NCBI GenBank assembly: GCA_027486655.1
Contig: JAIXOR010000067.1
Location: 21,280-85,279 of the forward strand
DNA: 64,000 bases
Origin: Verrucomicrobiaceae bacterium
GTDB lineage: Bacteria > Verrucomicrobiota > Verrucomicrobiia > Verrucomicrobiales > Akkermansiaceae
Direction: 5' to 3'
Made by a program: the position numbers and the translations under genes. Position 1 is the first letter of the stretch. Each line of letters starts with the position of its first letter. The notes below the pieces were generated by a model that was not told the origin of the DNA, did not search any database, and worked only from the letters and a program-made list of their open reading frames with translations. Positions 24,737-56,510 of the stretch are shown piece after piece.

Positions 24737-24951
24737 TTCATTAATTTTATTATGTTAATTAACAGCTCACACCAAGTTTGTTTTTAAAAATAATCATTAA
24801 GAATGCACTTCTGAATCACTTTACAGCATTAGTATAGATACTAAGTTTTAATAATAAATACACAATTCGAATGCCGTTCGGTGTATTCACCTAATTCAAC
24901 TGGTTGTATTAGCTTTTGAATATGTGATAATAGACCAAAAGCTTTAACAAT

Positions 24952-26481: not shown

Positions 26482-27746
26482 TCCCGAACATGTCCCATCC
26501 CAAACTTGAAACGGAAGGTGTTGCCGGACCCCGGGTAGCCTGGGCGGTCCACCGTTTCACTTCGGGTGGGATCGGCCCGGTCTGCCACTATGCGGCAAAG
26601 GAACTTGCGCTGCGTCATGGATGGCGGACCACCGTGGTCGCGCTTCACGAATCTCCCGGAGAATGCGAAACAGACTCCTGCCAACCCCGCATGGTGGCCC
26701 TCGATTTGCCCGAGCACGATACGACACCCTTTCTCGATTGGCTCGAATCCAACCCACAGGACATCGTCATCACCAACGACGTCGAGACCCTGGCGCCCTG
26801 CATGCCTCACTTTCCGAAGGGCACCCTGCATGTGATCCAGGTCCACGACTCGGGCGCACGCTACATCGCAGCAACCGCACGCAACTCCTTCTTTGCGGAC
26901 GGTATCATCTGTGTGGCGGAACATTTCGCAGGCAAGGTCCGTGAGACTTTGAAACACCGGGGGTTCCTCGGCCCGGTCGCCGCCGTGCACAATGGCGCGG
27001 ATTTCCCTGAGATTCCTCCACGCCCGATTCATCAGGATGCGCTGCGCCTGCTTTTCATGGGACGGATGGATCCTCTGGTCAAAGGAACCTTCGATCTCGC
27101 AGAAATCCTCCACGCCTCCATCTCCATGGGAGTGGACTGCAAGCTCGCAATCGCTGGCGGCTTCTGCGATCGGCTGAATTCCCGCTTCAAACGCCTCCAA
27201 CTCAGTGATCGGGTCGAGTGGCTGGGAAGAATCCCCCACGAAAAGTGCTACGAAATCGCCGCTGCATCCGACATCTTCATGATGACGAGCCGCAAGGAGC
27301 CTTTCGGGATGGTCACCATCGAAGCCATGGCGATGGGATGCGTTCCAATTGCATGGGACGTCGACTCGGGAACCCTCGAAATCATCGTTCCCGGTGAATC
27401 CGGTTTGCTCGCACGTGTGGGAAGTCCGAAGAATTTCGCAGCCGCAATTAACAAGCTCGACAAGGATCGCGACCTTCTCCTGTCCATGTCACGTGCCGCG
27501 TCCCTAAGGGCACGTTCGCGTTTCACTGCTGCCCACATGGCCAACGATCTCGAACATTACCTCGGAGGCCTCGGTCCGAGGGAAGGCAGATTGTTTACAC
27601 CGGGAAAACCGGCGGTTGCAAATCTTCCGGGACTCTCCAACCACTCAGGGTCACAAGGAATCAAGGACTTCCTCCGCGGATTGGTCCGCAGACAACTCGA
27701 GGTCAGCCCCAAGGCAGCGGCCTGGGCGTTGAAACACGTTCTCTAA
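26478..27746 (+). CDS. Glycosyltransferase family 4
   Basis: LFMGRMD..KG, SRKEPFGMVTIEAMAMG. Confidence 0.9.
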   Translation: MIPNMSHPKLETEGVAGPRVAWAVHRFTSGGIGPVCHYAAKELALRHGWRTTVVALHESPGECETDSCQPRMVALDLPEHDTTPFLDWLESNPQDIVITNDVETLAPCMPHFPKGTLHVIQVHDSGARYIAATARNSFFADGIICVAEHFAGKVRETLKHRGFLGPVAAVHNGADFPEIPPRPIHQDALRLLFMGRMDPLVKGTFDLAEILHASISMGVDCKLAIAGGFCDRLNSRFKRLQLSDRVEWLGRIPHEKCYEIAAASDIFMMTSRKEPFGMVTIEAMAMGCVPIAWDVDSGTLEIIVPGESGLLARVGSPKNFAAAINKLDKDRDLLLSMSRAASLRARSRFTAAHMANDLEHYLGGLGPREGRLFTPGKPAVANLPGLSNHSGSQGIKDFLRGLVRRQLEVSPKAAAWALKHVL

Positions 27747-39199: not shown

Positions 39200-39250
39200 G
39201 ATCATCGAGATACCGGACAGCCCTTGGGACACCAAGCCACCGTCATCCGA

Positions 39251-41227
39251 ATGAGCCATCACGGACCGCATCCGCGTTGGAGAACTTCATCGCCTTCGCG
39301 GGCTGGAAGGGCGCTGCCGTTCTTCATCTTCGGCGCGATCGTCACCGTAGCCTGCCTCTGCGCCGCAGCCCGGTGGGGGCTCTCGCATGGGATTCTTTTC
39401 ACCGCTTCGGGCGCACTCATCCTGGCTTATCCGCCACGCTTCCGGCAGCATCCCGGATGGGGTGCCCTGGGACTCGCATGGCTGGCCTGTGGTCTTCTGG
39501 CGTTCATGCCGATCTCGTGGGCAGGCGGTGCGGAGTGGCGTGAGCTCGTCGGTTCCGCAGGCCTCGGCATTTCCGGACTCGTAAGCCCGCAGCCGATCGA
39601 GACCGCCGTGGTTCTTGCCCAGCTTGCGGTGCTCGGAATGGTCGCTCTCTGGATCACAGGCCACGGCTGCTCGGATGAAACGAGAGCAACCATCGCCTTT
39701 GCCTTTGTCGGCATGGTGGGGGCCTTGTGCGCACTCGACCTTGCACTTCGCTCGGTCGAGGGAACCCTGCCCCATCAGGCGGACTTCGGATTTTTTCCCA
39801 ATCGGAATCACAGCGCCTGTCTGGTGGTGATGGCGTCCGTCACCGCCCTCGGCCTGCTGGTCCACGGCGTGAGGCGGAGGCGGCCTTCGGAGTTCCTCGT
39901 CGCCGGCACACTGCTCGGATTTCTCGTCTTCTGTTTGTTCACCAGATCCTCCAGCAGGGCCGGCATTATCCTGCTGCTTCCTTCCGTTCTGGCTTGGGTC
40001 ATTCTGCTGGGAAAAGACTATCTCAGAGGCAACGCCGGCAAAGCCTGCGCGCTTCTGCTGCTGGCCACGTCGCTCGGCTTCCTGCTCTCAGAATCCACCG
40101 TCAAGAATCGGATCTCTAACACCTTCCGGGCGGTTTCCGCATCCGCCTATCCATCGAGGAACGCAGATCCATCACCGCCCTCTCCCGAAGAAATCGACGG
40201 ACGATTCCCCATCGCCAGCGAAACGTTCGCACTGATCCGCGAGAACGCATGGACCGGCTGTGGCGCAGGCCAGTTTCGTTATGTGTTCCCCCAGTATCGA
40301 AAGCCATCGCTTTCAACCGATGGAAGCGATGTGCTGCACCCGGAGAGTTCATGGTTGTGGATCGCGGCGGAGACCGGATTGCCCTCAGCCCTGATTGCCT
40401 TCACCCTTGCGGGCTGGATCCTGCTCACAGCCGCCCGCGAGAGCCGGAAGGCGGTCTCCCGATGCAAGGCGCTCCGCGGTGCCTGCGTCGCCTCCGCCTT
40501 AGTTCCGATGATCCATGGTTTTTTCGATGTGTCCCCCCACCGCGCCGGGATTCTTTGGAGCGCGGCCCTCCTCACCGCAATCGCGTTGCCCATCGATAGA
40601 CGACGCGCCGGAACGACCCAATCCTGGGCCTGGCGGATCACTGGAACCACCATCCTCGGATTCGGGATCCTGCTGCTTGCCCGGCACTCGCTGGAATCCC
40701 CCCTTCTTCCCAGCGAAGCTGCGGAACGACTTCTAAAGAAGTCCTGGCATGCATACGAGCGCGACGCGGCCTCAAACGAGCGGGATCCAGCGGAATCCGG
40801 GGAACCCGATCCCCTGCTCAAGGGCATCCGCCACCTGACTGCCGCAGCCGAACTCACTCCGATGGAAGGCAGGGTCCACGGCTTGTTAGGAACCCTGGCC
40901 CTTCATTTCGACGATAAGGACGCCATCGCGGATCAGGCATTCGCCCGTCAGCGACTCCTCAATCCATCGTGGGTCCGCCTGCCCTTGATGCAGGCGGACT
41001 CTTGGCAAAAAATCGACCCCGTCCGGGTCGCCTCTCTCTGGCAGGAGGCCGTCCAACGGGCCCGCGATGCGGATAGCCGCGGGCACGAGACGGGCTTTGA
41101 AGAAGAAATCACCTCACACATCCGGAAAACCGCCGGAAAAGATCCCTCACTGACCGGAGCGTCCCGCGCGGCGCTGGGCCCGCAAGTGGCGTCCGACGAG
41201 GCGAAACCGACCACGCCAGAACCGTGA
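39251..41227 (+). CDS. O-antigen ligase family protein with helical C-terminal domain
   Basis: GFFPNRNH, SSSRAG, TGCGAGQF, HPESSWL..ETG motifs. Confidence 0.85.
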   Translation: MSHHGPHPRWRTSSPSRAGRALPFFIFGAIVTVACLCAAARWGLSHGILFTASGALILAYPPRFRQHPGWGALGLAWLACGLLAFMPISWAGGAEWRELVGSAGLGISGLVSPQPIETAVVLAQLAVLGMVALWITGHGCSDETRATIAFAFVGMVGALCALDLALRSVEGTLPHQADFGFFPNRNHSACLVVMASVTALGLLVHGVRRRRPSEFLVAGTLLGFLVFCLFTRSSSRAGIILLLPSVLAWVILLGKDYLRGNAGKACALLLLATSLGFLLSESTVKNRISNTFRAVSASAYPSRNADPSPPSPEEIDGRFPIASETFALIRENAWTGCGAGQFRYVFPQYRKPSLSTDGSDVLHPESSWLWIAAETGLPSALIAFTLAGWILLTAARESRKAVSRCKALRGACVASALVPMIHGFFDVSPHRAGILWSAALLTAIALPIDRRRAGTTQSWAWRITGTTILGFGILLLARHSLESPLLPSEAAERLLKKSWHAYERDAASNERDPAESGEPDPLLKGIRHLTAAAELTPMEGRVHGLLGTLALHFDDKDAIADQAFARQRLLNPSWVRLPLMQADSWQKIDPVRVASLWQEAVQRARDADSRGHETGFEEEITSHIRKTAGKDPSLTGASRAALGPQVASDEAKPTTPEP

Positions 41228-41564: not shown

Positions 41565-42449
41565 ATGAAAGCACACCCATTGATCCTGACGGCATTGGCC
41601 ATATGGCCATTGTCCCAACTGCATGCTTCGGTTTACCTTTCCGACTTCTCGGGGCTCTCCGTAAACGGAGCCTTGGAAGGAGTGGACGGTTGGCAGCAGA
41701 ATGAACCCAACGAAACCGATGGGACCTATGTTTATCCCCTCGCCTTCGGCTCACTAATCGGCTCGAATCCAGCGGCTGCGGTAGGTGGTTACTTCCTGAC
41801 CGATCCTCCAAACCCCAATACCGAGTTTCACGCCTATCACGCGCTCTCGCTTCAGGCATCCCGGCAGCTGACGCTATCGATGAATTTCGCAATCAACGAC
41901 AGCACAGGCTTCGACTCCAACGGCATCGGATATGGAGAACCCGGCTTCGATGGATCCGGCACGATCTACGGACAGGAGAGAAACTCATTCCGCATCGGCC
42001 TGCACAATGCCCTGAACGAGGAGTTCTTCGCCCTTGTCTTTGACCCTGTGGTGGGCGATCCCGATCCGAATGCCAGCCCTGACGATGCGTGGAACGTGTC
42101 TTGGTCCACCGGGGGTGTAAAAACCACAGTGATGGGCATTTATGAATCGCAGCTTCACACCCTGACGATGTCGTTCAGTCCGGACGGAGATGACGTGGAC
42201 TTCAGCTTCTCCATCGCCGGTCTCAATACCGCCACCACCGGCGGCACGCTCACAGGTCTTTCCGACGAAGAGATCACGGAGATCCAGGTCGGCATCAGCC
42301 CTACCTACTCAAGTGTGACGGACAGCCAACAACTCGGCACCAACCACCTCGTCTTCAACAACCTCGTGGTCATCCCCGAGCCCTCTTCGCTGATGCTCGC
42401 CGGCTCCGGCGTCATGGCCCTCATGGTGAGACGCAGGCGTCGGGCCTGA
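41565..42449 (+). CDS. PEP-CTERM sorting protein
   Basis: Signal peptide, beta-rich body, IPEPSS-TM-RRRRRA. Confidence 0.92.
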   Translation: MKAHPLILTALAIWPLSQLHASVYLSDFSGLSVNGALEGVDGWQQNEPNETDGTYVYPLAFGSLIGSNPAAAVGGYFLTDPPNPNTEFHAYHALSLQASRQLTLSMNFAINDSTGFDSNGIGYGEPGFDGSGTIYGQERNSFRIGLHNALNEEFFALVFDPVVGDPDPNASPDDAWNVSWSTGGVKTTVMGIYESQLHTLTMSFSPDGDDVDFSFSIAGLNTATTGGTLTGLSDEEITEIQVGISPTYSSVTDSQQLGTNHLVFNNLVVIPEPSSLMLAGSGVMALMVRRRRRA

Positions 42450-44603: not shown

Positions 44604-44618
44604 GTGCAAAAATTGCAC
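44604..44618. promoter_or_regulatory. GTGCAA-N3-TTGCAC site (perfect)
   Basis: gtgcaa aaa ttgcac in a divergent intergenic region. Confidence 0.8.
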
Positions 44619-44774: not shown

Positions 44775-45878
44775 ATGAACCCGCCAAACAGCGCCTCAGC
44801 TACAGGTTTATCCACTGTTCCACGGATACCGGTCAGAAAACACGCACGCTCTCTCCGAGTCCGACCGCTGGCCATCGCAGCGGTGATCGCCAGCGGTCAT
44901 CTTGTGTCCTGTGGCAGGAACTCCCCGGACGCCCGCCTCGAAGCCCAGGAGCGGCAACACCTCGAAGCCATGGCTCAGGACATCACCTCGGCCATACGCG
45001 CCACGGAGGAGCAGACCTCGCGCCTCGCCTCGGAGATCGCCGGAATGTATCCGGATCTCCAGCGCAACGCCGCAAACGCCGACCGCTCTCAATACAAGCT
45101 GGAACCCAACGGAGTGCTTCACCGCCCCGCCGCCATCAAGAACGAACAAGCCGCCGTATTCGTCTCCGGGGCCGTCAAGGTCGATGAATCCGTCATGACC
45201 GTCGTGCTCGGCACCGAAGCCCTCGACCCCGTCCTCAAACGCATTCCGGAAGTCCATCCCGCCGTCGTTCAAGCGTATTACAACGACTGTCACAGCTACA
45301 ACCGCATCTATCCCCCCTTCGACGTGCTCACCCAATACCCGCCGGGAATGCCCATTCCGACCTACAACTTCTACTACCTCGCGGATTCAAAACACAACCC
45401 GGAGCGCAAGGCAGTCTGGGTCAAGGAACCCTACGTCGATCCCGCCGGGCGCGGTTGGATGATCTCCTGCATCGCCCCCGTTTATCACGAAAACTCACTC
45501 ATGGGCGTGGCCGGACTCGACATCACCGTCGAAGCCATCGTCAGAAACTTCGATTTCGAAAACGCCAACAAAATGTGCCTTCTCGCGGCGGCCGACGGCA
45601 CCGTCGTTGCCACCGGAGAACACCTCATCCACGTCCTCCGCCTGCCCGCCCTCAAGAACCACCGCTACGTCGACACCGTCCGCTCGGACACCTTCCGCTC
45701 CGCTGACTACAACATGCTCAAGAGCCGCTCCATCGCCATCCGCAACATGGCGGACGCGCTTCTCGTGAAAAACAATCCCTCCGCCATGCTCGAACTCGAC
45801 GATGTGAAATGGACCATCAACTCCACACCCATCCCGGCACTCGATTGGCGTCTTCTTGAGTTCATCCCGCGGCAATGA
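44775..45878 (+). CDS. Stand-alone Cache-domain (dCache-like) lipoprotein
   Basis: Lipobox-like LVSC; FYYLAD..HNPER..VW..PYVDPAG.GWMISCIAPVY..GVAGLD pattern; ATGA-coupled to the downstream kinase. Start uncertain. Confidence 0.78.
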   Translation: MNPPNSASATGLSTVPRIPVRKHARSLRVRPLAIAAVIASGHLVSCGRNSPDARLEAQERQHLEAMAQDITSAIRATEEQTSRLASEIAGMYPDLQRNAANADRSQYKLEPNGVLHRPAAIKNEQAAVFVSGAVKVDESVMTVVLGTEALDPVLKRIPEVHPAVVQAYYNDCHSYNRIYPPFDVLTQYPPGMPIPTYNFYYLADSKHNPERKAVWVKEPYVDPAGRGWMISCIAPVYHENSLMGVAGLDITVEAIVRNFDFENANKMCLLAAADGTVVATGEHLIHVLRLPALKNHRYVDTVRSDTFRSADYNMLKSRSIAIRNMADALLVKNNPSAMLELDDVKWTINSTPIPALDWRLLEFIPRQ

Positions 45879-48409
45879 CCCGCAACGACGTCCATCGCGA
45901 GCTCAAGGGGCGCACCGACTGGCTGCGCTTCTTCAGCGTCGTCAGGAACTGGCACCTTCTCGCGCTTTTCACCCTCTTCGTCGGCTCCGCCATCTGGCTG
46001 TCCGTGCGCATTATGCGCCTCGAACTCCAGGCCGCAACCAACCGCCTCGTCAGCCACTCGGCCGGAGCCTCCCGCAATCTTGAGACCCAGTTCGATTCCC
46101 TGCGCGACGACTTCCGCGTGCTGGTCTCAACCGGTGCCTTCGAAGCCAGTGTCGGCGAACCCGGACGCAACAATCGCGACCTCGCCAGCGTCAAACGCTT
46201 CTTCGCACGCTATCAGGAAATGATTTCCAGCGTCGAAGTCCTCCTCGTCGACGGTGAAACCATCCTCCTTGAAATCGCTCCGGGCAACTACCTGCGCACG
46301 TCCAGACATGCCAAGTCCACCCACCCCATCATTCCCTCCGCCCCCTCGAAAGTGACCCATGCCGACGAACACCTCATCATCGAGGAACTCGTCCCGGCCG
46401 CGGAGTCCACCGTCATCCGCAGGGTCTGCCTGCACATCAATCACAACCGGTTCTTCGGCGAACAACTCGCCAGTTACCTCATGGGCCAGTCGGACCTCTG
46501 GATCTGGTCGATCGAAGAGGCGGGAAAACCCACCCTCATCCGCAATCCGCTCAAGCTGGGGATCGATTCATTCAACGTCGCTCCCGATGCCCTTCACCGC
46601 ATCCACCAAACCCTCGGCCAGGGCTTGGAAGGCGTGGAGGAACACTCCATCCTGGTTCCCGGGGAACGCTCTGTTGTCAGCGCCTACACACCACTGCACC
46701 TGGGCGGAGAACGCATGGGCCTGGTGTTCTCCACGGACAGCGAGGTCCACCTAGGCAGCCTCCACCGCCTTTCCAAGTTCCTCGGCCTCATTTTCCTCGG
46801 GTCCTTGGTTCTGTTAGGATCGTGGTTCGCGATTTCCTACACGCGCATCCGCGAATCCGAAAGGGAACAGGCGGCTGCAAGGCTCCGTGCCGAGGCGGCG
46901 GACCGCGCCAAAAGCGAGTTCGTCGCCGCAATGAGCCACGAAATCCGCACCCCTCTCAACGGCGTTCTCGGCTATGCGGACCTCCTCATGGCTTCCAAGC
47001 TCACTCCCGGCCAGCGGGATCATGTGGAGGTGATCCGCCACAGCGGAGACCACCTTCTGAGCATCCTCAACGACATCCTCGATTTCTCGAAGATCTCCGC
47101 CGGAGACATGAACCTGCGCTGCCTTCCATTCTCCCCGCTCGAATGCACGGACGACGTCATCGACATGATGTCCACCGCCGCGGACGAACAAGGTCTCGAA
47201 CTGAACCTTGAGGCCCGTGGAGAAATCCCCGCACAAGTCATGGGAGATCCGGGGCGTCTCAGGCAGGTGCTCTACAATCTGGTGGGCAACGGACTCAAGT
47301 TCACCCACGACGGGTCCGTCTCGGTCACCATCGAGGCCTTTGACGAAGGCGACCGCTGGCGGCTCGCCTTCGTCGTCAGCGACACCGGCATCGGCATCCC
47401 CCCGGGAAAGCGCGCCCGGTTGTTCGCCCCTTTCAGCCAGCTCGACGCATCCAATACCCGTGAATACGAGGGCACCGGACTTGGCCTCGCGATCTGCAGC
47501 CGCCTGGTCGAAAAAATGGGGGGAGGCATCGACTTCGAATCGGAGCCGGGCACAGGCAGTGATTTCCACTTCTGGATCATGGCCGGCAAGGTCGATGCGG
47601 CGTCCGACGTCGAACCTCCACCTTTGCATGGCAAGACCGTCATGATCATCGACCCCTCCGAACGCTGCCGGGATTCCCTGGCAGCAAGAATCCGCCGCAT
47701 GGGTGCACAGGTGATCACCGCGGAGGACGAATCCGCGGCAATCCGCCTTTCCGAAGGCAGCGACGGAGTGGACCTCGTGATGATGCACTGGAGCGGTGAA
47801 CCCGCTGCCGGCAAGGCCCTGCGCAGCCACCTCATGAAGGGCCGCGCCCATCCGCCCTCGATGATCGCCCTCACCGGAAAAGGCGTGGATCTGGCACCAC
47901 CCGATCCCGCGTTCAGGGAACGCATGGCCAAACCCGTCCGTCTCGCCAGTCTCGCAAGGCGCCTGATCCACCTGATGGAGAACCATCGATCCGATGCCCC
48001 AACCCCAGCCTCCGCCAACCTCCGCGTGCTGATCGCCGAGGACAATCCCGTGAACAGCAGCCTCATGGTCGCCCTCATGGAACAACGCGGAGCCTCGACC
48101 ACACTCGCGGAAAACGGCAACGAGGCCCTCGCCGCGCTCGAACGGGAAGAGTTCGATGTGGTGTTCATGGATGTGGAAATGCCCGGCCTTGACGGTATCG
48201 AGGTCACCCGGAGATACCGTCAGCTTGAGAGCTCATCCGGCTCACCACGGGTGACGATCGTAGGGCTATCCGCTCACGCCTTTCATGAGGACCGCGACCT
48301 CGCCCTGAACGCAGGCATGGACGACTACCTGACCAAGCCCGTGGTATTCACCGATCTCGATCGTGTGCTTGCGGAGTGCGCCGCCGGGAAAAGCCGTCAG
48401 CAGTCATGA
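45875..48409 (+). CDS. Membrane hybrid histidine kinase (TM-periplasmic-TM, HisKA, HATPase, pseudo-REC, REC)
   Basis: SHEIRTPLNG, NLVGNGLKFT, DTGIGI, GTGLGL; first REC has MMHW instead of xxDx, second has FMDVEMP. Confidence 0.93.
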   Translation: MTRNDVHRELKGRTDWLRFFSVVRNWHLLALFTLFVGSAIWLSVRIMRLELQAATNRLVSHSAGASRNLETQFDSLRDDFRVLVSTGAFEASVGEPGRNNRDLASVKRFFARYQEMISSVEVLLVDGETILLEIAPGNYLRTSRHAKSTHPIIPSAPSKVTHADEHLIIEELVPAAESTVIRRVCLHINHNRFFGEQLASYLMGQSDLWIWSIEEAGKPTLIRNPLKLGIDSFNVAPDALHRIHQTLGQGLEGVEEHSILVPGERSVVSAYTPLHLGGERMGLVFSTDSEVHLGSLHRLSKFLGLIFLGSLVLLGSWFAISYTRIRESEREQAAARLRAEAADRAKSEFVAAMSHEIRTPLNGVLGYADLLMASKLTPGQRDHVEVIRHSGDHLLSILNDILDFSKISAGDMNLRCLPFSPLECTDDVIDMMSTAADEQGLELNLEARGEIPAQVMGDPGRLRQVLYNLVGNGLKFTHDGSVSVTIEAFDEGDRWRLAFVVSDTGIGIPPGKRARLFAPFSQLDASNTREYEGTGLGLAICSRLVEKMGGGIDFESEPGTGSDFHFWIMAGKVDAASDVEPPPLHGKTVMIIDPSERCRDSLAARIRRMGAQVITAEDESAAIRLSEGSDGVDLVMMHWSGEPAAGKALRSHLMKGRAHPPSMIALTGKGVDLAPPDPAFRERMAKPVRLASLARRLIHLMENHRSDAPTPASANLRVLIAEDNPVNSSLMVALMEQRGASTTLAENGNEALAALEREEFDVVFMDVEMPGLDGIEVTRRYRQLESSSGSPRVTIVGLSAHAFHEDRDLALNAGMDDYLTKPVVFTDLDRVLAECAAGKSRQQS

Positions 48410-48673
48410 GCCACGTCCTGCCGATGAGGCGATGCCTCGACGGCGGCGACGGATCAGTCCAAGCATCCCGAAAACACCGATGAACGCTGCCGCCGACTCG
48501 GCGGAAAGCAGGTTCATGTCCGCACTCAGGCGGGCCAATGGAAGCGCGGACACCACCCGCGACGCATCCTTCAGGATCGCACCCGGCGGCGGAAGGGACG
48601 CAGCCGGATCGGAGGCCGGAGCATATGCCCAGCCGCCCAGGGCAAGCAACAGAGTGACACGGATCAATCTCAT
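48404..48673 (-). CDS. Small exported protein with a PEP-CTERM-like TM/Arg tail but no PEP motif
   Basis: Signal peptide, then SAESAAAFIGVFGMLGLIRRRRR; palindrome site 71 nt upstream. Confidence 0.6.
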   Translation of the reverse strand: MRLIRVTLLLALGGWAYAPASDPAASLPPPGAILKDASRVVSALPLARLSADMNLLSAESAAAFIGVFGMLGLIRRRRRGIASSAGRGS

Positions 48674-48761: not shown

Positions 48762-49793
48762 TCATTCCTGCCATGGAGCGGGCATTTTCACGAATGCCGG
48801 CCCTTCCACCTCAGAGGCGTAGTATCGATGGAAAACCGGGCAGGCCGATCCTGACATCGGCGGCACCAGCCATGACCAGTCACCGGGAACCTCACGACCC
48901 CGTGCCTCTTCGTGACGAACGTGCTTCATGAACTGCTCCGATGCCGTGTGGTGATCCACCAGCGTCACTCCCGCCTCACGGAAAGAATGGATTACCGCCG
49001 TATTGAGCTCAACGAGCGCACGGTCCTTCCACAACCCATGTGGAGACTTGAAATCCAGACCCATGCGCCGTGCGACTTCCGGCATCAGGTTGTAGCGGCC
49101 GACATCCCCGAGATTGCGGGAGCCGATCTCCGTGCCCATATAAAACCCGCTGAATGGCGCCGCCGTGAACCGTGCGCCATCCACCACCAAGGCCATGTCC
49201 GAGACGGCTGGCAACGCATGCCACTTCAATCCCAAGTCCGCAAACCAGGTGAAATCCGGATGCTTGAGCGGAACCTCAAGCACGGCCTCCTCTGGAATCT
49301 GATAGAGCCGGGGCTCCTGCCCCGGCATCCCGATCACCAGCGGCAGCACGTCAAACCGTCCGGGCACCGGAGGCGGCGTCCACCCCAGCCCGATGACCCG
49401 CCGGGTGAACTCCTCCTGCTCGGGGTCCCCGAGAACCTCGCCCGAGGCCAGCCGGTATCCCGCGTAGCGGATCAGCTGGCGATTCCAAATCCGGATCCCC
49501 CGCCCGGGCTCATCCTCCGCACGGAACACCGTGATCGCCGGACGAATCCGGCCGCCATGGGTGGAATGAACCAGATGATGGACACACGCGTCGAAGACCT
49601 CGTCCGCGGTTGCAGCCGCCCTTGCATCTAACAAATCAAGGCCCTGCCAGAACAATCGGCCGATGCAGCGGGGATGGTTGCGCCAGGCCAGACGCGCCTG
49701 CACCTCAAGTTCCTCCGCAGCCATCCAGGCCGCCGGAGCGACCCCGCCTTCACGGGGACTGCATCCACCGTCCCTGTTCAACTCCGTCGGCAT
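48762..49793 (-). CDS. nos: Nitric oxide synthase oxygenase (bacterial NOS)
   Basis: AWRNHPRCIGRLFW (proximal Cys/Trp), QLIRYAGY, WHALPAVSDM, FSGFYMGTEIGSRN (substrate Glu), VDHHTASEQF, DWSWLVPPMSGS..PVFH. Confidence 0.96.
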   Translation of the reverse strand: MPTELNRDGGCSPREGGVAPAAWMAAEELEVQARLAWRNHPRCIGRLFWQGLDLLDARAAATADEVFDACVHHLVHSTHGGRIRPAITVFRAEDEPGRGIRIWNRQLIRYAGYRLASGEVLGDPEQEEFTRRVIGLGWTPPPVPGRFDVLPLVIGMPGQEPRLYQIPEEAVLEVPLKHPDFTWFADLGLKWHALPAVSDMALVVDGARFTAAPFSGFYMGTEIGSRNLGDVGRYNLMPEVARRMGLDFKSPHGLWKDRALVELNTAVIHSFREAGVTLVDHHTASEQFMKHVRHEEARGREVPGDWSWLVPPMSGSACPVFHRYYASEVEGPAFVKMPAPWQE

Positions 49794-50276
49794 TCACTCC
49801 TCCTCCGGCCTTTCTTCTCTGAGGGATGAGCCATAAGCTGCAAAGGAATCACTCCCGAACGCCCTGCCCGATACCGGGGTGGGGCGCGATGGATGACCAC
49901 CGTCCGCACCCACCTCATGGCTGAGAAACGGCTCGTTCTGGGACCGAGGCAGCCTTCCGAAGGTCCGGATGAATGACGCGAGCCTGCCACGGAGATCCAC
50001 CCAGCGCCCGGTGGGCGTGGAGGCCAGTTCGTGCAGCCAAACCCTCCTCTGCCGGGACTCCTCATCGTCGTGCCGCTTCGAGAGCTTGTGCAGCTCATGC
50101 CGATGCAGCTCACACCAGGCGGCGAGTCTCCTCAATTCGAGATCCGGAGGCATTCCGCTCGAATCAGCCGTCTCAAGAGCCCTCCGGGCAAGCATCATGA
50201 ACACGGAGGAAACATCCGCACGGACGCGAACATCCGGTTCAAGGGGCAGTTCCTGATCCAAGGTATCGGATTCCAT
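49794..50276 (-). CDS. Hypothetical protein (160 aa), in frame with and abutting nos
   Basis: 5 nt downstream of the Hpt-like gene; its TGA directly precedes the nos ATG. Confidence 0.65.
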   Translation of the reverse strand: MESDTLDQELPLEPDVRVRADVSSVFMMLARRALETADSSGMPPDLELRRLAAWCELHRHELHKLSKRHDDEESRQRRVWLHELASTPTGRWVDLRGRLASFIRTFGRLPRSQNEPFLSHEVGADGGHPSRPTPVSGRAFGSDSFAAYGSSLREERPEEE

Positions 50277-50281
50277 AAGTC

Positions 50282-50671
50282 CTATTTTTCGGTTAGTCTA
50301 ACATCGTTCATCACAACCGGGCCGATCTCCAGAGTGGACCAGGCCGCGATGCTCATTCGAACCACCTCGCGCAGCGCTTCCATCCGCGCGTCGCACGGCT
50401 GCGTTCCATCCGACAGACATTCCGCGGCAACCTTCGCCAAGGCGACGAATCCGCAACTCACCGCAGCCCCCTTGAGCTTCACAAGCAGCGGGCGGGCCTC
50501 CGACACGGTCGTGGCGGACATCATCTTGGACTCAAGCACGTAAAGATATCCCGGAAGCCTGCTGGCAAACTCATCGATGATGTCCTTTATCCGGGGATTC
50601 CTCACGATCCCCATCGTATTCATGTGGGCGAGATCCAGGATGGGATAAATCGCACCGACGCTGTCTTTCAT
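50282..50671 (-). CDS. Hpt-like protein lacking the phospho-accepting His
   Basis: PILDLAHM N-terminal motif; LLVKLKGAAVSCG in place of AHxLKG. Confidence 0.7.
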   Translation of the reverse strand: MKDSVGAIYPILDLAHMNTMGIVRNPRIKDIIDEFASRLPGYLYVLESKMMSATTVSEARPLLVKLKGAAVSCGFVALAKVAAECLSDGTQPCDARMEALREVVRMSIAAWSTLEIGPVVMNDVRLTEK

Positions 50672-50726
50672 GGAGATTTGAGTAACAGTTTCGTCAGAAC
50701 CGCATATCAAATTGTCCATTTGTTTC

Positions 50727-50741
50727 GTGCAAAGGTTGCAG
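50727..50741. promoter_or_regulatory. GTGCAA-N3-TTGCAC site (1 mismatch)
   Basis: gtgcaa agg ttgcag, about 55 nt upstream of the Hpt-like/orf160/nos operon. Confidence 0.68.
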
Positions 50742-50758
50742 GGACAATCCGCAGCCAC

Positions 50759-50798
50759 AAAAAAGGACATGGAGGTGACACCCATCACCTCCATGTCC
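50759..50798 (-). terminator. Intrinsic terminator
   Basis: Perfect 14-bp stem GGACATGGAGGTGA/TCACCTCCATGTCC, 6-nt loop, then T6 on the minus strand. Confidence 0.8.
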
Positions 50799-50957
50799 AG
50801 GATGACTGCAGCCATACCCCATTCGCATGGAGATCAGACCCGATATCGAACAACAATATGAACGTCTTTTCCGCCGCGCATTGGATGTCCCCCGCAGCGT
50901 CAAAGACCCGGATGAGATAACTTCAGGATGAATCACGTTCAACGGAATTCCGCCCGG

Positions 50958-50972
50958 GTGCATCATTTGCAC
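50958..50972. promoter_or_regulatory. GTGCAA-N3-TTGCAC site (1 mismatch)
   Basis: gtgcat cat ttgcac. Confidence 0.7.
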
Positions 50973-50984
50973 GAATTCCTCCTG

Positions 50985-51344
50985 ATCGGCGAATGCATGC
51001 ATTTCATGCATGATATCCCCCACATTTCATGCACTTCGGCATTTCATCGACTCGCGACATGCGCCAGTTTCCCGCCGTCGGCACTGCGGACTCCGCAAGG
51101 ATCCACCGCATGCCGTCAATTCCATCACCGGAAGTTTTCCACGACCACGTGTCGCGGTTTGCCTGTAAGGGGGTAAATGCCCTCCAAGGGTGTGGGGCGG
51201 GAGGCTCCACACCCTTGGAAGACCCTCCCTCGCATGCGGACCCAAAAGATTTCCGGACAGATCCCGGGGGGGAATGTGTCCGGATTGAGGAGCATGCCCT
51301 CAAACGCCGCAGGAGGACTCGTTCCTCCTGCGGCAAACTTTTTT
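50985..51344 (+). ncRNA. Candidate structured small RNA
   Basis: Stems 51183-51219 (13 bp), 51252-51284 (8 bp), 51306-51334 (12 bp) plus T6; no convincing ORF; boundaries approximate. Confidence 0.35.
51306..51344. terminator. Hairpin terminator, possibly bidirectional
   Basis: 12-bp stem GCCGCAGGAGGA/TCCTCCTGCGGC; AAACTTTTTT follows on +, GTTTG on -; 14 nt past the kinase stop. Confidence 0.7.
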
Positions 51345-51348
51345 AAGG

Positions 51349-53586
51349 TCAAACCGGTGCGATGAACTCTCGGATCTTCACGATCATCTCGCCATGAAAC
51401 AAGGGCTTCGCCATGAAGCCGTTCATGCCGGCCTGCATGCACTCGATCTGGTCGGAACTGCGGGCGTTGGCGGTGAGCGCGATGATCGGGGCCCGTGACG
51501 ACTTTCTTCCCGGTTCCGCCCTGAGCGCACGGGTGACCTCGACGCCATTCATCACCGGCATCCAGCAGTCCATGAAGATCAGATCGTACTCTTTCTCTGT
51601 TGCCATCGCGAGCGCCTCGCCGCCATCCATCGCGAGATCCACGCAGAGTCCCGTGCTTTCGATCATCATCCGTCCGAGCACTCCGGAGGTCTCGTCATCC
51701 TCGGCAAGCAGCACCCGGCCCTTGAACCTCTCTGAGCGGGACTCCGGCACGTCACGGACGTCGAGATTCCGAAGGGCTGTCTCCGCCAGCGGCAGACGCA
51801 CCACGAAGTAGCTCCCCACTCCGGGTCGGCTGAAAGCACGAATCGCACCTCCCATCAAGGCGGTGAGTTCCTTGGTGATCACAAGTCCCAACCCGATTCC
51901 GTGGTCACCCGACTCGCTTTTCCTGACCGCCTGGGCAAAGGGCTGGAACATCCGGTTCTTGAATTCGCGGTTGAAGCCGATGCCGGTATCCGAAACGGAG
52001 AACCTCACGGGTTGGATTCCGGATGCTCCCTTGCGCCCCATCGAGACACGCACGCGGATGGTTCCGTTGCGGGTGAACTTGAGCGCATTTCCCATCAGGT
52101 TTGCCAGAATCTGCCGGAGGCGGACCGGATCTGCTAGGACCAGACGAGGCACCGCGTCATCAACCTTCCAGTCCAGTTCGCTACCCTGATCGCGTGCCTT
52201 TTTCTCCTCCATCCCGGCGAGCTCGCCCAGCATGGCGCGCAGGTCGACCGGCTCTGGCCGCAGGTCCAGCCTTCCGGCCTCAATTCTCGCGATGTCCAGA
52301 CTCTCGCCAATGATCTTGAGCATCCACCGGCCGGCACCTTCGCCAAGAGCAAGCAGATGCCGTCTGCGACCTTCGTCTTCACAGGATCCGAGCATTTGGA
52401 ACGCTGCCATCATGCCGTTGAGAGGCGTGCGGATCTCGTGACTGACGGAGGCAAGGAAGGAGCTTTTTGCGAAGCTCTCCTGTTCGGCTCGCTCCTTGGC
52501 AATGCGGTGCATCCTCTCGGACTCGATGAGGCGGCATTCCAGGATCTTCTGTTTGGTCACGTCGATGTGCGTGCCGATCATGCGGTGAATCCCGTCGTTC
52601 GGCTTGGAAATATTGAAGCCACGCGTGTTGATCCAGAGCCACTCACCATCGCGGTTGAGCATGCGGAGCGTCATCTCGAACTGGGTTCCGGGGCGTTTCG
52701 CGCAGCGGCCCGCCACCCGGAGCGCCTCGTCACGCTCATCGGGATGCAAGCGGCCACTCCACTCCTCCGGCAAATCCCCGACATCATCCTCGGACAGTCC
52801 GAGCTGGCGCTTCCATTGCTCCGAGTAATAGACCCGGCCGGAAGAAAGGTCCCAATCCCACAGGCCGACGTTGCTGGAAGCAAGAGCGGTGACCAGACGT
52901 TCTTCGGACACCCGGATCCGTTCGATCTGACCCGCGATGGTCGCGCGACGGCGGAGGCTTTCGATCAATACGCCCACCTGATTGGCAAAGGTGGTGAAGA
53001 CCGCGGAAACACCGCCGGGAAAACCCTGATAGAAACCGGGTTGATGCCGGGTGTTGCAGGCGAACAACATTGCAACCGGCTGCCCCTGGGAGTCGACGAC
53101 AAGCTCGGCACAGAAGTCATCCTGCAACCCGAGCTCACCGGGCAGCGGTGGCAGCGGCAGGACCGCCGCTCCTGCCCTCGCCCTCGATGCGAAGGCCTCA
53201 AGATTGGTAAGGATCCAATCACGCAGTGCACGCCACTGGGTGTAGCTCACCTCGCCCAGACCGGAGTGCGTGAGACAGTCCTCATTCTGCTCGCATTGCA
53301 GGCACCAGCAAGCCGCCACGCCACACTCCAACAACTCGATGATGGCCTCGCAAACCAGGTCGGGAAAACTGTCGCCGCTGTCCACCTGCACGGCCTGCCG
53401 GATGAAGTGCTGGATCGTATTGAACCTCGCCCGCTCCTGATCGAGCCGATGGCTGAGGTCGAGCACCTCCTGACGGAGGCGTTCGATCTGGGAGACCTGC
53501 CGCCGCAACAGCACGATCTCGGGCTCGGGATCCTGCGCTGACATCAGGCCATCCACAGGAGCTCTTGCTGACAATCCTGAATCCAT
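51349..53586 (-). CDS. Cytoplasmic hybrid histidine kinase (coiled coil, GAF-like, PAS, HisKA, HATPase, REC), NahK-like by context
   Basis: GLWDWDL..WSGRLHPDE PAS; SHEIRTPLNG; NLMGNALKFT; DTGIG; GIGLGL; FMDCWMP. No TM. Start uncertain, set just after the FIST stop. Confidence 0.92.
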   Translation of the reverse strand: MDSGLSARAPVDGLMSAQDPEPEIVLLRRQVSQIERLRQEVLDLSHRLDQERARFNTIQHFIRQAVQVDSGDSFPDLVCEAIIELLECGVAACWCLQCEQNEDCLTHSGLGEVSYTQWRALRDWILTNLEAFASRARAGAAVLPLPPLPGELGLQDDFCAELVVDSQGQPVAMLFACNTRHQPGFYQGFPGGVSAVFTTFANQVGVLIESLRRRATIAGQIERIRVSEERLVTALASSNVGLWDWDLSSGRVYYSEQWKRQLGLSEDDVGDLPEEWSGRLHPDERDEALRVAGRCAKRPGTQFEMTLRMLNRDGEWLWINTRGFNISKPNDGIHRMIGTHIDVTKQKILECRLIESERMHRIAKERAEQESFAKSSFLASVSHEIRTPLNGMMAAFQMLGSCEDEGRRRHLLALGEGAGRWMLKIIGESLDIARIEAGRLDLRPEPVDLRAMLGELAGMEEKKARDQGSELDWKVDDAVPRLVLADPVRLRQILANLMGNALKFTRNGTIRVRVSMGRKGASGIQPVRFSVSDTGIGFNREFKNRMFQPFAQAVRKSESGDHGIGLGLVITKELTALMGGAIRAFSRPGVGSYFVVRLPLAETALRNLDVRDVPESRSERFKGRVLLAEDDETSGVLGRMMIESTGLCVDLAMDGGEALAMATEKEYDLIFMDCWMPVMNGVEVTRALRAEPGRKSSRAPIIALTANARSSDQIECMQAGMNGFMAKPLFHGEMIVKIREFIAPV

Positions 53587-53593
53587 CGAGGTA

Positions 53594-54796
53594 TCACAAG
53601 GAGCCATCACGCCTGTACAGGACGTATAGGGCCGTGGTGTAGTTGTGAAACTCATTCTGCCCGCCAAGCCGGGCAAACTCGCCGAATCCGTACATGCCGA
53701 GCCATGGCGGCGTTTCATCTCCCTCGGTGAAGGGAGCCTGCATTCTCGAAACCAGCTCCTCCTTGAGGATCCGGTTGAACATATGCCGCCCCCGGGCGAG
53801 GCAGTCGGCATGGAACACGGCCACGGGAGTCACCCCACCCGTCTCGCGGACGAGCCGTGCGGTCAGCCGGTCCATGTCCGAAAAGATGCGGTCTTCATCG
53901 CGCACCGTAAGCCATAGGTCGGTGCCTTCTTCGATGGTGGTCGCATAATGCATCGCCCCGGAGTCATCGTGACTGGTTACCACTCTCAGGATGTGGGGGT
54001 TTCCATACTCGGCTGCAAGTGCCTCCGGCAGCCGCTCCGCGAGCGCCCCGATCGGGATCGTCTGACCGCAGTGTGCGTCCTCAGCCAGACCGAGGCGTTC
54101 GGTGAATTCCAACCAGGCCGGCCGGCCGTTCAACTCGATGATCCGGTTGCCTTCGGAACGCGTAACCCGCATCGGATCCCCGACTGCGAGAAAGCCATGG
54201 CTCGCCCCCGTGGCCACGTGAAGGTCGGGATCCGCAAAGCCGACCAACCATGCCGAGTGCTCATAGACGTGCTCTCCGAAAATCTGATAACTCTTCAGCC
54301 CCCTCATGTTATCGGCGGAGGTGGCACCGAACACGGTTACATCGGAACCAAGGGAATCCTCGATCGCGCGGATGCATTCGTCATTGGCGATATCGATGCC
54401 GGAGGCCATGAAATACACCATGTTCACTCCCGGCAGGCGGCGCTTCAACTCGTTCGCAAGCTCGCCGACCTTCTCGCGGCTGTTGTGGCCGAACACGCCA
54501 TCTCCATGAACGGCGGCGAGTTCCTTGCCGGTGACGGCCATGATCGCGACGTCCCTCATGGTTTCGCTCACCCCCTCGCGGCCGATGATGCCGCAGCAGG
54601 AAGCGCCGACGACCAAGGCCCGGGGAGCGAGCTTGGCGGCCTCCGATGCGAGCTCGGTGAAATCATGACCCACGGAGGCGTGAATCATCAGGAGATCGCA
54701 ATCCAAGCCGGGATTTCCTCCGGCGATTTCGACGCACTCGGCAATGGCGCGTCTTGAATTGATGACCCGGGTACTTGCGGAAGCGAAGTGCAGCAT
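53594..54796 (-). CDS. FIST N/C-domain protein (NosP-like)
   Basis: GASCCGII, VFGATSAD, GASHGF..VG..MRVTRSEGNRIIELNGRPA, DCLAR, GMYGFGEF, FHNYT. Start MLHFAS. Confidence 0.9.
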   Translation of the reverse strand: MLHFASASTRVINSRRAIAECVEIAGGNPGLDCDLLMIHASVGHDFTELASEAAKLAPRALVVGASCCGIIGREGVSETMRDVAIMAVTGKELAAVHGDGVFGHNSREKVGELANELKRRLPGVNMVYFMASGIDIANDECIRAIEDSLGSDVTVFGATSADNMRGLKSYQIFGEHVYEHSAWLVGFADPDLHVATGASHGFLAVGDPMRVTRSEGNRIIELNGRPAWLEFTERLGLAEDAHCGQTIPIGALAERLPEALAAEYGNPHILRVVTSHDDSGAMHYATTIEEGTDLWLTVRDEDRIFSDMDRLTARLVRETGGVTPVAVFHADCLARGRHMFNRILKEELVSRMQAPFTEGDETPPWLGMYGFGEFARLGGQNEFHNYTTALYVLYRRDGSL

Positions 54797-54962
54797 GGGA
54801 TGATGGTTTGGGGGGGTGGTTGTTGGTTTGGGGAGGAGATCCTGGTGGTTTGTCAGGTCCCGGTGGATGCCACGAGCATCGGTAAAATGGCGCGGCTGGA
54901 CCAAGGTAAGCATCCCGAAACCGATTCTGCACCCGGTTCAAGACACAAATCGCGTACCAACC

Positions 54963-54977
54963 ATGCAAACTTTGCAC
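54963..54977. promoter_or_regulatory. GTGCAA-N3-TTGCAC site (1 mismatch)
   Basis: atgcaa act ttgcac in the FIST/regulator divergent promoter. Confidence 0.72.
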
Positions 54978-54997
54978 TAACCCATCGCTTCGGATCC

Positions 54998-55012
54998 GTG
55001 AAATATTTGCAC
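54998..55012. promoter_or_regulatory. GTGCAA-N3-TTGCAC site (1 mismatch)
   Basis: gtgaaa tat ttgcac, 35 bp from the previous site. Confidence 0.68.
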
Positions 55013-55082
55013 GTCTTCAATGCGCAACGAATCGTCCCATTCGGCATTGAATCCTGTTCACAGCACCCAAAGCACCCACCCC

Positions 55083-56510
55083 ATGAAGAAGCCAGACACC
55101 CCGACCGATGACCGGTCCAGCCCTTGGTCGGTTCTCGTGGTGGAGGACGATTTGACGACCTCCTCCCTCATTTGTGCGGTCCTTGATGACAGGGGCATCC
55201 CGTCGCTGCCCTGTCAAAGCGTCCACGAATCCATGGAAGCGATCCGCGAAAACCTGACGATCGGCGCGGCGGTCATCGATCTCGGTCTGCCGGACGGGGA
55301 TGGCATCGACGTCATCCGCAAGGCACGGCAGGTGTTCCCAGGGCTTCCCTTCTTCGTGCTCACTGCCAAAGAGAGCGTTGAGAGCGCGGTTGTCGCGATG
55401 AAGGCAGGAGCGATGGACTATTTCACAAAGCCCTTCGATACGGAAAAACTCGTCACCGTGCTGGCGGATGCGATGAGTCTCTACCGCGGCCAGAGGGAGC
55501 GTAACCAGACGGGCAAAGAGGATTTCCCCAGCATTCGCCGCTGGAAGTCGCCGAAGATGCGTCAAGCGCTCGAGGTGACCAAACTCGCTGCGAAAACGCT
55601 CTCGCCCGTGCTCATCACCGGGGAACCCAGCACCGGCAAGCGCTCGATCGCCCGCATGATCCACGAGGGCGGCAAGCTCCGGAGCAAGCCCCTCGTCACC
55701 ATCAACCTCGCCAACCTCACTCCGCCGGAAGCGGAGATCGAGCTCTTCGGCAAGCCGCTCTCCAAAGGCGAGGAAGCCCATGAAGCCGGACGCGGGCGGC
55801 TTGAACGCTCGGGTGGATCGACGATCTTCATCGAGAACATCGAGCGGCTCAGCGCACCCGCCCAATCCGCCTTGCTCGAATGGATCCAGGCCGCCGACAA
55901 GGGCGGTCCGGGCGGTGTTTCACCGTGCCGCTTGATCGTATCCGGCCCTGCCGCTCTCGAACGGCTGATCCTCGAAGGCTCGTTCCGCGACGACCTTCGC
56001 TACGCGCTTTCGGTTTATCAGGTCGAAGTGCCGTCACTGGCGGAACGCGCCCAGGATCTTCCCGACCTTTGCGAGACCACGATCACCCGCATCTGTGTCT
56101 CGCGGAAGCTGCGGAGGCCCAGCCTCACCCGCAAGGCAATGGAAGTCATTCTCGATCACGCATGGCCGGGGAACCTCAGCGAGCTTCACAGCGTGCTCGA
56201 ACACGCCGTCACCCACACCGGCGACGGATTGATCGGCCCGGACGATCTCCCGCGCCTGCTTTCTTCGTCCGAATCGACGCGCACCAGTTTCATCCCGCTG
56301 GGCATCTCCAGCATCGATGACATCAACAAAGCCACCCTGCTCGCCGCGCTCGAGGCCTGCGGGGGGAACCGCCGCCGCGCCGCCCAGCGCCTCAAGGTGA
56401 GCCTGCGCACGATTTACAACATGATTCAGCGCTATCAGGTGTCCGATGCCGTTCCCAGCAGCCGGATAAAGAAGCGGTCCAAACTGCCGCCACAGGCCAA
56501 CGCGAGCTGA
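55083..56510 (+). CDS. NtrC-like response regulator (REC, degenerate AAA+, Fis-type HTH)
   Basis: VEDD..IDLGLPDGDG..TKPF REC; GEPSTGK; GAFTGA absent; GGNRRRAAQRLKVSLRTIYNMI HTH. Confidence 0.9.
   Translation: MKKPDTPTDDRSSPWSVLVVEDDLTTSSLICAVLDDRGIPSLPCQSVHESMEAIRENLTIGAAVIDLGLPDGDGIDVIRKARQVFPGLPFFVLTAKESVESAVVAMKAGAMDYFTKPFDTEKLVTVLADAMSLYRGQRERNQTGKEDFPSIRRWKSPKMRQALEVTKLAAKTLSPVLITGEPSTGKRSIARMIHEGGKLRSKPLVTINLANLTPPEAEIELFGKPLSKGEEAHEAGRGRLERSGGSTIFIENIERLSAPAQSALLEWIQAADKGGPGGVSPCRLIVSGPAALERLILEGSFRDDLRYALSVYQVEVPSLAERAQDLPDLCETTITRICVSRKLRRPSLTRKAMEVILDHAWPGNLSELHSVLEHAVTHTGDGLIGPDDLPRLLSSSESTRTSFIPLGISSIDDINKATLLAALEACGGNRRRAAQRLKVSLRTIYNMIQRYQVSDAVPSSRIKKRSKLPPQANAS

Follow-up and report, generated by a model that had tools for sequence, protein, structure and literature searches.

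A nitric oxide synthase gene linked to a predicted FIST-containing phosphorelay in a freshwater verrucomicrobium

Gene content of the nos locus

We analyzed a 64,000-nt stretch of DNA (hereafter the window; contig JAIXOR010000067.1 of assembly GCA_027486655.1) from a freshwater, Akkermansiaceae/Luteolibacter-like member of the Verrucomicrobiota, in which nos, a gene for nitric oxide (NO) synthase (NOS), lies beside genes for a FIST-domain protein, a hybrid histidine kinase, and an NtrC-type response regulator. A cluster of six genes had been proposed here by an earlier inspection of the letters without database searches (hereafter the sequence-only reading), and all six were recovered by open reading frame (ORF) calls and domain searches:

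48762-49793, minus strand: NOS oxygenase, 343 aa, matching PF02898 with an E-value of 1e-135
49794-50276, minus strand: orf160, with no Pfam match; its stop codon adjoins the ATG of nos
50282-50671, minus strand: Hpt-like protein (pseudo-Hpt), 129 aa as called in relatives, matching Pfam Hpt at 20.8 bits
51349-53544, minus strand: hybrid kinase, 731 aa, PAS_3-HisKA-HATPase_c-REC
53594-54796, minus strand: FIST protein, 400 aa, with E-values of 1e-30 for FIST and 1e-12 for FIST_C
55020/55083-56510, plus strand: NtrC-type regulator, divergent from the other genes, REC-Sigma54_activat-AAA_lid-HTH_8

The nearest relatives of this NOS are Akkermansiaceae, Luteolibacter, and Haloferula proteins. The metagenome-assembled genome (MAG) GCA_027488615.1 carries a NOS copy that is 96% identical and lies in the same gene order as in the window, and the window sequence was found again in freshwater metagenomes. 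As the sequence-only reading had stated, no reductase, flavodoxin, GGDEF, or EAL gene was found among essentially all sizeable ORFs of the 64-kb window. The loci of relatives compared with the window are numbered L001-L104.

The NO synthase and its partner orf160

The NOS consists of the oxygenase domain only (343 aa) and scores 452 bits against PF02898, the gathering score of which is 22.7. Its best match in the PDB is the Geobacillus NOS 2flq (E-value 1e-108), with an alignment that runs end to end. The heme-thiolate Cys43 (in the motif WRNxxRCIGR), Trp37, and the arginine-binding Glu222 (in TEIG) are invariant in 32 relatives, and Cys43 and Glu222 both align to 2flq. As judged from these alignments, the enzyme is intact at its defining residues. 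The oxygenase-only form without the N-terminal Zn/hook region and the conserved Cys thiolate and Glu are shared with the bacterial NOS oxygenases of Bacillus, Geobacillus, Staphylococcus, and Deinococcus; unlike those, nos in the window is embedded in a signaling operon and coupled to orf160. At the Val/Ile switch of the heme pocket, the window NOS has Val (residue 197), as do mammalian NOS, whereas Bacillus-type NOS have Ile; of the 32 relatives, 24 share the Val, while 7 carry Ile. Val at this position is associated with faster release of NO.

The orf160 gene encodes a small helical protein and is translationally coupled to nos, with its stop codon abutting the nos ATG. It has no Pfam or NCBIfam match, and its family is tiny, with three clusters in one search and 21 representatives among 1.84 billion proteins. 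The AlphaFold2 model comprises five helices and, at a low confidence (pLDDT 66), gave no fold match. An overlapping pair of orf169 and NOS without any relay gene occurs in L102. In L101 (10001-10492), an orf160-family paralog (60% identical) stands directly before, and overlaps, the gene for a 2997-aa repeat protein, with no NOS there. Because this paralog precedes a repeat protein instead, the orf160-type protein is not exclusive to NOS.

Linkage of nos with relay genes among relatives

The NOS neighborhoods were compared among close relatives (NOS at least 72% identical) and metagenome loci (53-70% identity); the scan of genome contigs gave two loci. In about nine distinct verrucomicrobial lineages, relay genes are found no more than a few kb from NOS, in at least six gene orders. 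The arrangement of the window recurs in L003, and the other arrangements, with HK for the hybrid kinase and RR for the response regulator, are as follows:

L009: HK, Hpt-like gene, orf165, NOS
L007: regulator directly upstream of NOS
L010-L013: compact same-strand operon FIST-HK-RR-Hpt-NOS, with 4-bp overlaps of RR with Hpt and of Hpt with NOS
L001: FIST-HK-RR divergent from NOS
L051: FIST at the contig edge, MarR gene, NOS
L036: RR, an ORF without assignment, NOS
L055: RR divergent from Hpt-NOS
L056: Hpt and RR near NOS

Because the linkage has been retained through at least six rearrangements, including arrangements with overlapping frames, we take it as strong evidence at the level of gene order that NOS and the relay are functionally coupled. 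A search for NOS next to FIST had been suggested as a check on the cluster; it found the genes linked in several lineages but most related NOS genes unlinked. Any relay gene at NOS was detected in 4 of 80 metagenome loci and in none of the 16 that have at least 5 kb on both flanks. Luteolibacter LG18 and GHJ8 carry NOS beside pheS with no relay (LG18 also has argG nearby), and one Limisphaerales genome has no relay genes at NOS. A distance tree of NOS places the linked loci at dispersed positions within one clade. In L103/L104, the whole module, with the RR gene divergent from FIST-HK-Hpt, is present without NOS. The occurrence of the module without NOS and of NOS without the module fits a recruitment of nos as a target gene.

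In two of the linked loci, the relay genes are separated from NOS by a conserved HTH_Tnp_1 ORF of transposase type (L001, 9063-9482; L056, 5265-5696). Only an N-terminal FIST-like remnant is left in L056 (about 4800-4870), which suggests rearrangement or decay.

A palindrome shared by the relay genes, nos, and a polysaccharide island

A 15-bp palindrome, RTGCA-N5-TGCAY (consensus GTGCAAA-N-TTTGCAC), occurs at nine sites in the window compared to 0.24 expected, and all nine are intergenic:

54963-54977: divergent region between the FIST and regulator genes, with a relaxed second site at 54998-55012
50958-50972 and 50997-51011: between the kinase gene and the nos operon; paired sites are also present in L009 and L003
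48744-48758: directly after the nos stop codon and upstream of orf89
44604-44618: upstream of the Cache/HK2 pair
16402-16416: upstream of the stand-alone Hpt gene
21315 and 21413: between the wza-wzc export operon and a MarR gene
41337: ahead of a gene for a PEP-CTERM protein

The genes at the last five of these entries include a second sensor pair and parts of a large exosortase (EpsH)/PEP-CTERM polysaccharide island that occupies positions 13879-44074 of the window:

48404-48673, minus strand: orf89, a small exported protein whose C-terminus is hydrophobic and rich in Arg
44775-45878, plus strand: Cache-like lipoprotein, convergent on nos
45875-48409, plus strand: HK2, a membrane hybrid kinase with two transmembrane segments
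16581-17000, plus strand: stand-alone Hpt protein, matching Pfam Hpt with an E-value of 3e-15 (56.6 bits); motif AAHALKG
17028-19127: Wzc-like protein
19200-20039: Wza
21554-22000: MarR-type protein
39224-41227: Wzy_C protein
41565-42449: PEP-CTERM protein

Among the loci compared, which belong to different taxa, the palindrome is found 15.4 times per 100 kb in relay-bearing loci, 0.77 times in NOS-only loci, and not at all in loci with only FIST and kinase genes; loci with the NtrC-like regulator are about 20-fold richer in it. In the window, L010 (86 bp), L001, L051, and L103, a site precedes the FIST gene by 86-180 bp, and in six cases (the window, L009, L007, L010, L051, and L036) one lies upstream of nos or the nos operon. 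Among the lineages with the palindrome, the recognition helix of the regulator (VSLRTIYNM-like) is conserved. The GAFTGA-positive regulator of L055 has a different helix, and no palindrome was found near it. The simplest reading of this distribution is that the palindrome is a candidate operator of the NtrC-type regulator. As several of the palindromes lie within the EpsH/PEP-CTERM island, a regulon of this kind would tie the relay to matrix production.

The response regulator and the Hpt proteins

The regulator gene probably starts at position 55083 and encodes a 475-aa protein. The designation NtrC-like holds for the REC-AAA+-HTH_8 architecture, and the alignment shows that the phospho-acceptor Asp and the Lys of REC and the Fis-type HTH are conserved. 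It does not hold for the sigma-54 contact loop and Walker B: GAFTGA is absent, with ELFGKPLSKGEEAHEA in its place, and Walker B reads IFIENI as compared to hhhhDE. The same degeneration of the AAA+ core was observed in L007, L010, L001, L056, and L103, and a canonical regulator, with ELFGHEKGAFTGA and LFLDEI, was found only in L055. The regulator is unlikely to activate sigma-54 because GAFTGA is absent and Walker B is degenerate, and it is probably a sigma-54-independent, phosphorylation-dependent DNA-binding factor. A transcriptional output, rather than one based on cyclic di-GMP (c-di-GMP), had been anticipated from the gene content and is supported here. Against the PrsR model TIGR02915, the regulator scored 172.7 bits and failed the cutoff of 502.6. 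A candidate sigma-54 promoter near the Hpt-like gene was rejected on inspection for its wrong spacing, the regulator also being devoid of GAFTGA, and a sigma-70 promoter scan gave no matches in the cluster.

The gene beside nos that had been described as Hpt-like is present; its product matches Pfam Hpt (PF01627) at 20.8 bits, which is under the gathering score of 24.6. The ORF is 177 aa long and extends to position 50815, and the 129-aa form is the call made in relatives. In the alignment, the column of the phospho-accepting His is occupied by Val (LVKLKG) in the window, L003, and L009, so that in the window lineage the nos-linked gene encodes a pseudo-Hpt, which may serve as a decoy or a scaffold. 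The Hpt proteins of L010, L055, L056, and L103 have His in this column, as does the stand-alone Hpt of the window (16581-17000). The latter gene lies inside the polysaccharide island, 32 kb from the cluster and downstream of the palindrome at 16402-16416, and its product is the likely phosphotransfer partner of the window relay.

The FIST protein and its kinase

The FIST protein is a stand-alone protein of FIST_N and FIST_C domains, encoded directly upstream of the kinase gene, with its stop codon 49 nt before the kinase ATG. It had been described as NosP-like, which is borne out for fold, architecture, and gene context but not for family membership, as it scored 36.8 bits (E-value 2.3e-9) against the NCBIfam NosP equivalog model NF041558 and failed the cutoff of 450. 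The kinase likewise failed the NahK/ErcS models NF041832 and NF041831, with 139.1 and 115.9 bits versus cutoffs of 400 and 1500, respectively, and the NCBIfam models of TorS, BarA, and ArcB outscore these. Searches of plasmid sequences by tblastn with the FIST protein returned only generic annotated FIST proteins at about 20-27% identity, none of them annotated as NosP.

The FIST protein is 64-67% identical to proteins of Chromatiaceae/Thiohalocapsa, of a MAG labelled Actinomycetes, and of planctomycete-like contigs. Each of the distant copies with a neighborhood that was examined is followed by a PAS_3 hybrid kinase, which is only 32-43% identical to the kinase of the window; no NOS, regulator, or Hpt gene was found near these FIST-kinase pairs (Chromatiaceae, planctomycete-like, and other contigs). 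Invariant among 89 members of the subfamily are four Cys (C21, the C67-C68 pair in GASCCG, and C332 in HADCLARGR) and four His (H200, H268, H329, and H384); they sit, at the C-terminal ends of beta-strands, among numerous polar residues that are likewise invariant. These alignments place the FIST protein in a highly conserved, Cys/His-rich subfamily that extends across phyla. A gas, redox, heme, or metal cue would fit the invariant Cys and His residues.

The AlphaFold2 model of the FIST protein (pLDDT 90.9) was nearest to the FIST domain of eukaryotic FBXO22 in a Foldseek search, in which matches to the Toblerone fold and chorismatase were weak. A sequence search of the PDB gave nothing relevant, neither a solved homologue with a cofactor nor a bacterial FIST structure for comparison, and the structure is therefore uninformative on a cofactor. 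How FIST proteins bind their ligands is unsettled, with NO and/or heme as candidates (PMC8846402).

The hybrid kinase (51349-53544) has an N-terminal region without a Pfam match, followed by PAS_3, HisKA, HATPase_c, and REC. Its translation contains the H-box SHEIRTPLNG and the Asp of REC, and the kinase of L003 was also called as 731 aa. No convincing transmembrane segment was found in it, consistent with its earlier description as soluble.

Non-coding elements between the kinase gene and the nos operon

The 680-bp gap between the kinase and Hpt-like genes is conserved to a degree that exceeds that of the flanking genes, and it contains two non-coding elements:

51100-51345: structured element of about 240 nt after the kinase gene, with hairpins H1-H6
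50765-50865, minus strand: 100-nt block ending in an intrinsic terminator (hairpin 50798-50765 followed by six T residues)

The structured element is conserved in the window, L009 (2560-2800), and L007 (1725-1975), where it retains 11-14 base pairs through double substitutions and has folding z-scores of -5.4 and -6.4. In L007, it follows the regulator gene and not the kinase gene, and its 5' hairpins are recognizable after the kinase gene in L103 (about 7200-7310).

The terminator of the 100-nt block has a 15-bp stem and lies about 95 nt before the ATG of the Hpt-like gene. The block is present in a single copy in the window and is essentially identical between the window and L009, the two distinct sequences compared, whereas the proteins encoded on either side share only 55-78% identity. 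As it lies immediately downstream of two palindromes, we consider it a candidate for a regulator-dependent small RNA (sRNA) or an attenuator of the nos operon. A scan of the intergenic elements with the 4227 covariance models of Rfam yielded none that passes, the best being P8 sRNA with 33 bits against a gathering score of 60. We also considered reading the block as a conserved Cys/His/Gly-rich small ORF (MGYGCSHPGHGGDGCHLH); since the invariance extends to synonymous positions, an RNA element seemed more likely to us.

A relay that may control nos expression

Of the mechanisms considered, the best supported is one in which nos is expressed as an output of the relay; we assign it a probability of about 0.5. 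On paper, the relay is complete, with an H-box, two REC domains, and a His-bearing Hpt (L010, L055, L056, L103, and position 16581 of the window). According to this model, nos, orf160, and, in the window, the His-less Hpt paralog would have been joined to a cytoplasmic phosphorelay that is complete in itself, at its downstream end. This relay would consist of four parts: the FIST protein as accessory sensor, the soluble hybrid kinase with its PAS domain, an Hpt protein, and the divergently encoded regulator of NtrC type, the AAA+ core of which is dead. The FIST protein would modulate the kinase, and phosphate would pass from the kinase His to the kinase REC, to Hpt, and to the regulator REC, with the Hpt used in this host probably being the one encoded at 16581-17000. 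The regulator would bind GTGCAAA-N-TTTGCAC independently of sigma-54 and govern transcription at its own operons, at the pseudo-Hpt-orf160-nos operon, and, in the window lineage, at exosortase/PEP-CTERM polysaccharide genes. Were NO the cue of the FIST protein, the circuit would become a feedback loop. The linkage is solid, as are the new cis and RNA elements; the central claim, that control runs from the relay to nos, is one that we infer, and it fits the evidence at least as well as the converse, in which NOS feeds the sensor.

Several observations weigh against control of nos by the relay. Only a minority of the related NOS genes show the linkage. Lineage effects may contribute to the contrast in palindrome densities. 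A MarR gene adjoins two of the window sites and, in L051, nos, so the palindrome could belong to another factor, and the MarR protein could be the main alternative binder. The Hpt protein encoded next to nos is not phosphorylatable at the canonical site. Furthermore, because a strong terminator separates the paired palindromes from the nos operon, control of nos may be indirect, by an sRNA or by attenuation. Finally, the matches in one metatranscriptome were confined to short fragments of 90-97% identity, and the intergenic element was found in no RNA run searched.

The sequence-only reading had proposed that the organism both makes and senses NO, with the FIST protein acting as a NosP-type heme sensor that binds NO from the adjacent NOS and alters kinase activity, which is a special case of nos as relay output with NO as the ligand. 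We regard this as possible but doubtful. The FIST_N and FIST_C gene directly upstream of a soluble hybrid kinase gene is reminiscent of nosP-nahK and nosP-vpsS, and the homology to the NosP model, while weak, is significant (E-value 2.3e-9); however, the scores of 36.8 versus 450 for NosP and 139 versus 400 for the NahK family are far from membership, and the plasmid FIST proteins at about 20-27% identity include none annotated as NosP. NOS is the sole enzyme in the compact operon of L010, and its Val at the Val/Ile switch would suit fast NO release, yet members of this FIST subfamily that have the identical set of invariant residues accompany a kinase in NOS-less loci of other phyla and in L103, and no NO-metabolism genes were seen beside the NOS-less copies. 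Precedents are provided by the Silicibacter signaling pair of NOS and H-NOX (PMC4436077) and by the NosP-VpsS-LuxU-LuxO pathway of Vibrio cholerae (PMC6769237), but the way in which any FIST protein binds heme or NO is unsettled (PMC8846402), and there is no solved structure with which a heme pocket could be checked.

In another explanation, which we consider unlikely, the relay would mainly regulate the adjacent exosortase/PEP-CTERM island in the manner of PrsK/PrsR and respond to a cue other than NO, such as an amino acid (arginine, for instance), a metal, or iron-sulfur/thiol redox state; NOS would be one member of the regulon, its NO serving cytoprotection or the control of respiration. 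EpsH exosortase, Wza, Wzc, glycosyltransferase, and PEP-CTERM genes at 13.9-44 kb and the palindromes before the wza-wzc operon, the PEP-CTERM gene, orf89, and the Hpt gene are consistent with this possibility. A PEP-CTERM response-regulator model is also among the better NCBIfam matches of the regulator, although its score of 172.7 falls short of the 502.6 set for PrsR. Moreover, the four Cys and four His invariant in the FIST protein resemble a metal, iron-sulfur, or thiol site more than a single-His heme pocket. However, L010 and L103 have the relay yet no polysaccharide genes within 10 kb.

That NOS and the relay have no functional link and are neighbors by chance or through a shared mobile or variable island is very improbable: most related NOS genes are unlinked, HTH_Tnp_1 ORFs stand between relay and NOS in L001 and L056, and the NOS tree shows the linked loci dispersed, but the linkage has been kept in at least six gene orders, with overlapping frames in L010, and a common palindrome lies upstream of the relay genes and nos.

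The preferred reading, control of nos by the relay, can be extended to a verrucomicrobial clade with an autocrine NO circuit, the parts of which would be employed in this manner nowhere else, a picture that we consider speculative and, taken as a whole, improbable. The NOS with its mammalian-like Val pocket and orf160 as a dedicated partner would make NO; a FIST protein of a hitherto uncharacterized, Cys/His-rich, non-NosP subfamily would sense it through a metal, iron-sulfur, or heme center; and the hybrid kinase and Hpt would signal to the ATPase-dead NtrC-type factor. Through the palindrome and a Qrr-like small RNA, this factor would then feed back on nos and switch exosortase-dependent matrix production, and the His-less Hpt, expressed along with nos, would damp the relay as a decoy.

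Comparison with known signaling systems

The arrangement of the FIST and kinase genes resembles that of NosP-NahK (PA1975/PA1976 in Pseudomonas aeruginosa, with counterparts in Legionella and Shewanella, and NosP-NosK-NosR in Burkholderia). In both cases, a FIST_N and FIST_C gene lies immediately upstream of the gene for a soluble kinase, and the kinase is a hybrid without an obvious ligand-binding input that needs an Hpt protein. In contrast to NosP-NahK, the FIST protein and kinase of the window fall far under the NosP and NahK cutoffs, the FIST subfamily has its own invariant Cys/His signature, a NOS gene is attached, and the output is an NtrC-type transcription factor rather than c-di-GMP enzymes or HptB/Gac.

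The NosP-VpsS-LuxU-LuxO pathway of V. cholerae shares with the window a FIST sensor, a cytosolic hybrid kinase, an Hpt protein, and an NtrC-family regulator (PMC6769237). The putative regulator sites beside the terminator-ended 100-nt block recall the LuxO-dependent qrr genes, with the sRNA and the regulon being predictions in the window, and polysaccharide genes are likely targets here, as are the vps genes in V. cholerae. Unlike LuxO, the window regulator is devoid of GAFTGA and of Walker B and thus cannot work with sigma-54 in the LuxO manner; the parts are clustered here but dispersed in Vibrio, and V. cholerae has no NOS.

Silicibacter sp. TrichCH4B possesses NOS, H-NOX, a hybrid histidine kinase, Hpt, and a diguanylate cyclase, and its endogenous NO is reported to be a signal that controls biofilm (PMC4436077). 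As described there, an NO synthase is encoded together with a relay of sensor, hybrid kinase, and Hpt, as in the window, but the sensor is H-NOX and not FIST, the NOS is full-length with a reductase domain, and the output is c-di-GMP; the description consulted does not place nos next to the sensor genes (PMC4436077). PrsK/PrsR (TIGR02915) likewise comprises an NtrC-family regulator beside an EpsH/PEP-CTERM polysaccharide island, but the window regulator scores 172.7 against the cutoff of 502.6 and has a degenerate AAA+ core, and its sensor is a pair of FIST protein and hybrid kinase, not PrsK.

In searchable papers, outside which many subscription papers lie, we found no report that links NOS with FIST and none on a verrucomicrobial NOS; the sequence-only reading had not known of a NOS-FIST cluster either. 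The regulation of bacterial nos genes and signaling by self-made NO in free-living Gram-negative bacteria are poorly understood fields, and the compact FIST-HK-RR-Hpt-NOS operon of relatives offers a defined system of one enzyme, a sensor, a kinase, an Hpt protein, a regulator, and a candidate operator. The FIST subfamily is unusually conserved across phyla, and knowledge of its ligand would help to settle what FIST domains sense. A real palindrome regulon would tie NO synthesis to exosortase/PEP-CTERM matrix production in Verrucomicrobia, providing a transcriptional counterpart of the proteobacterial link between NO and biofilm.

Other features of the window

The gene for the Cache-like lipoprotein overlaps the HK2 gene by 4 bp, and the pair is also found next to nos in L003, L007, and L009. 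HK2 with its periplasmic, Cache-type partner parallels CqsR of V. cholerae and may provide a second input to the same relay. The orf89 gene and its palindrome are conserved in L003 and L009. The polysaccharide island also contains genes for a pyruvyl transferase, many glycosyltransferases, and PEP-CTERM proteins. Inside the island, positions 23000-26500 have a GC content of 0.50-0.54 compared to about 0.61 and hold genes for an FkbM methyltransferase and a 509-aa ORF without a family; this segment looks like a horizontally exchanged cassette for polysaccharide modification.

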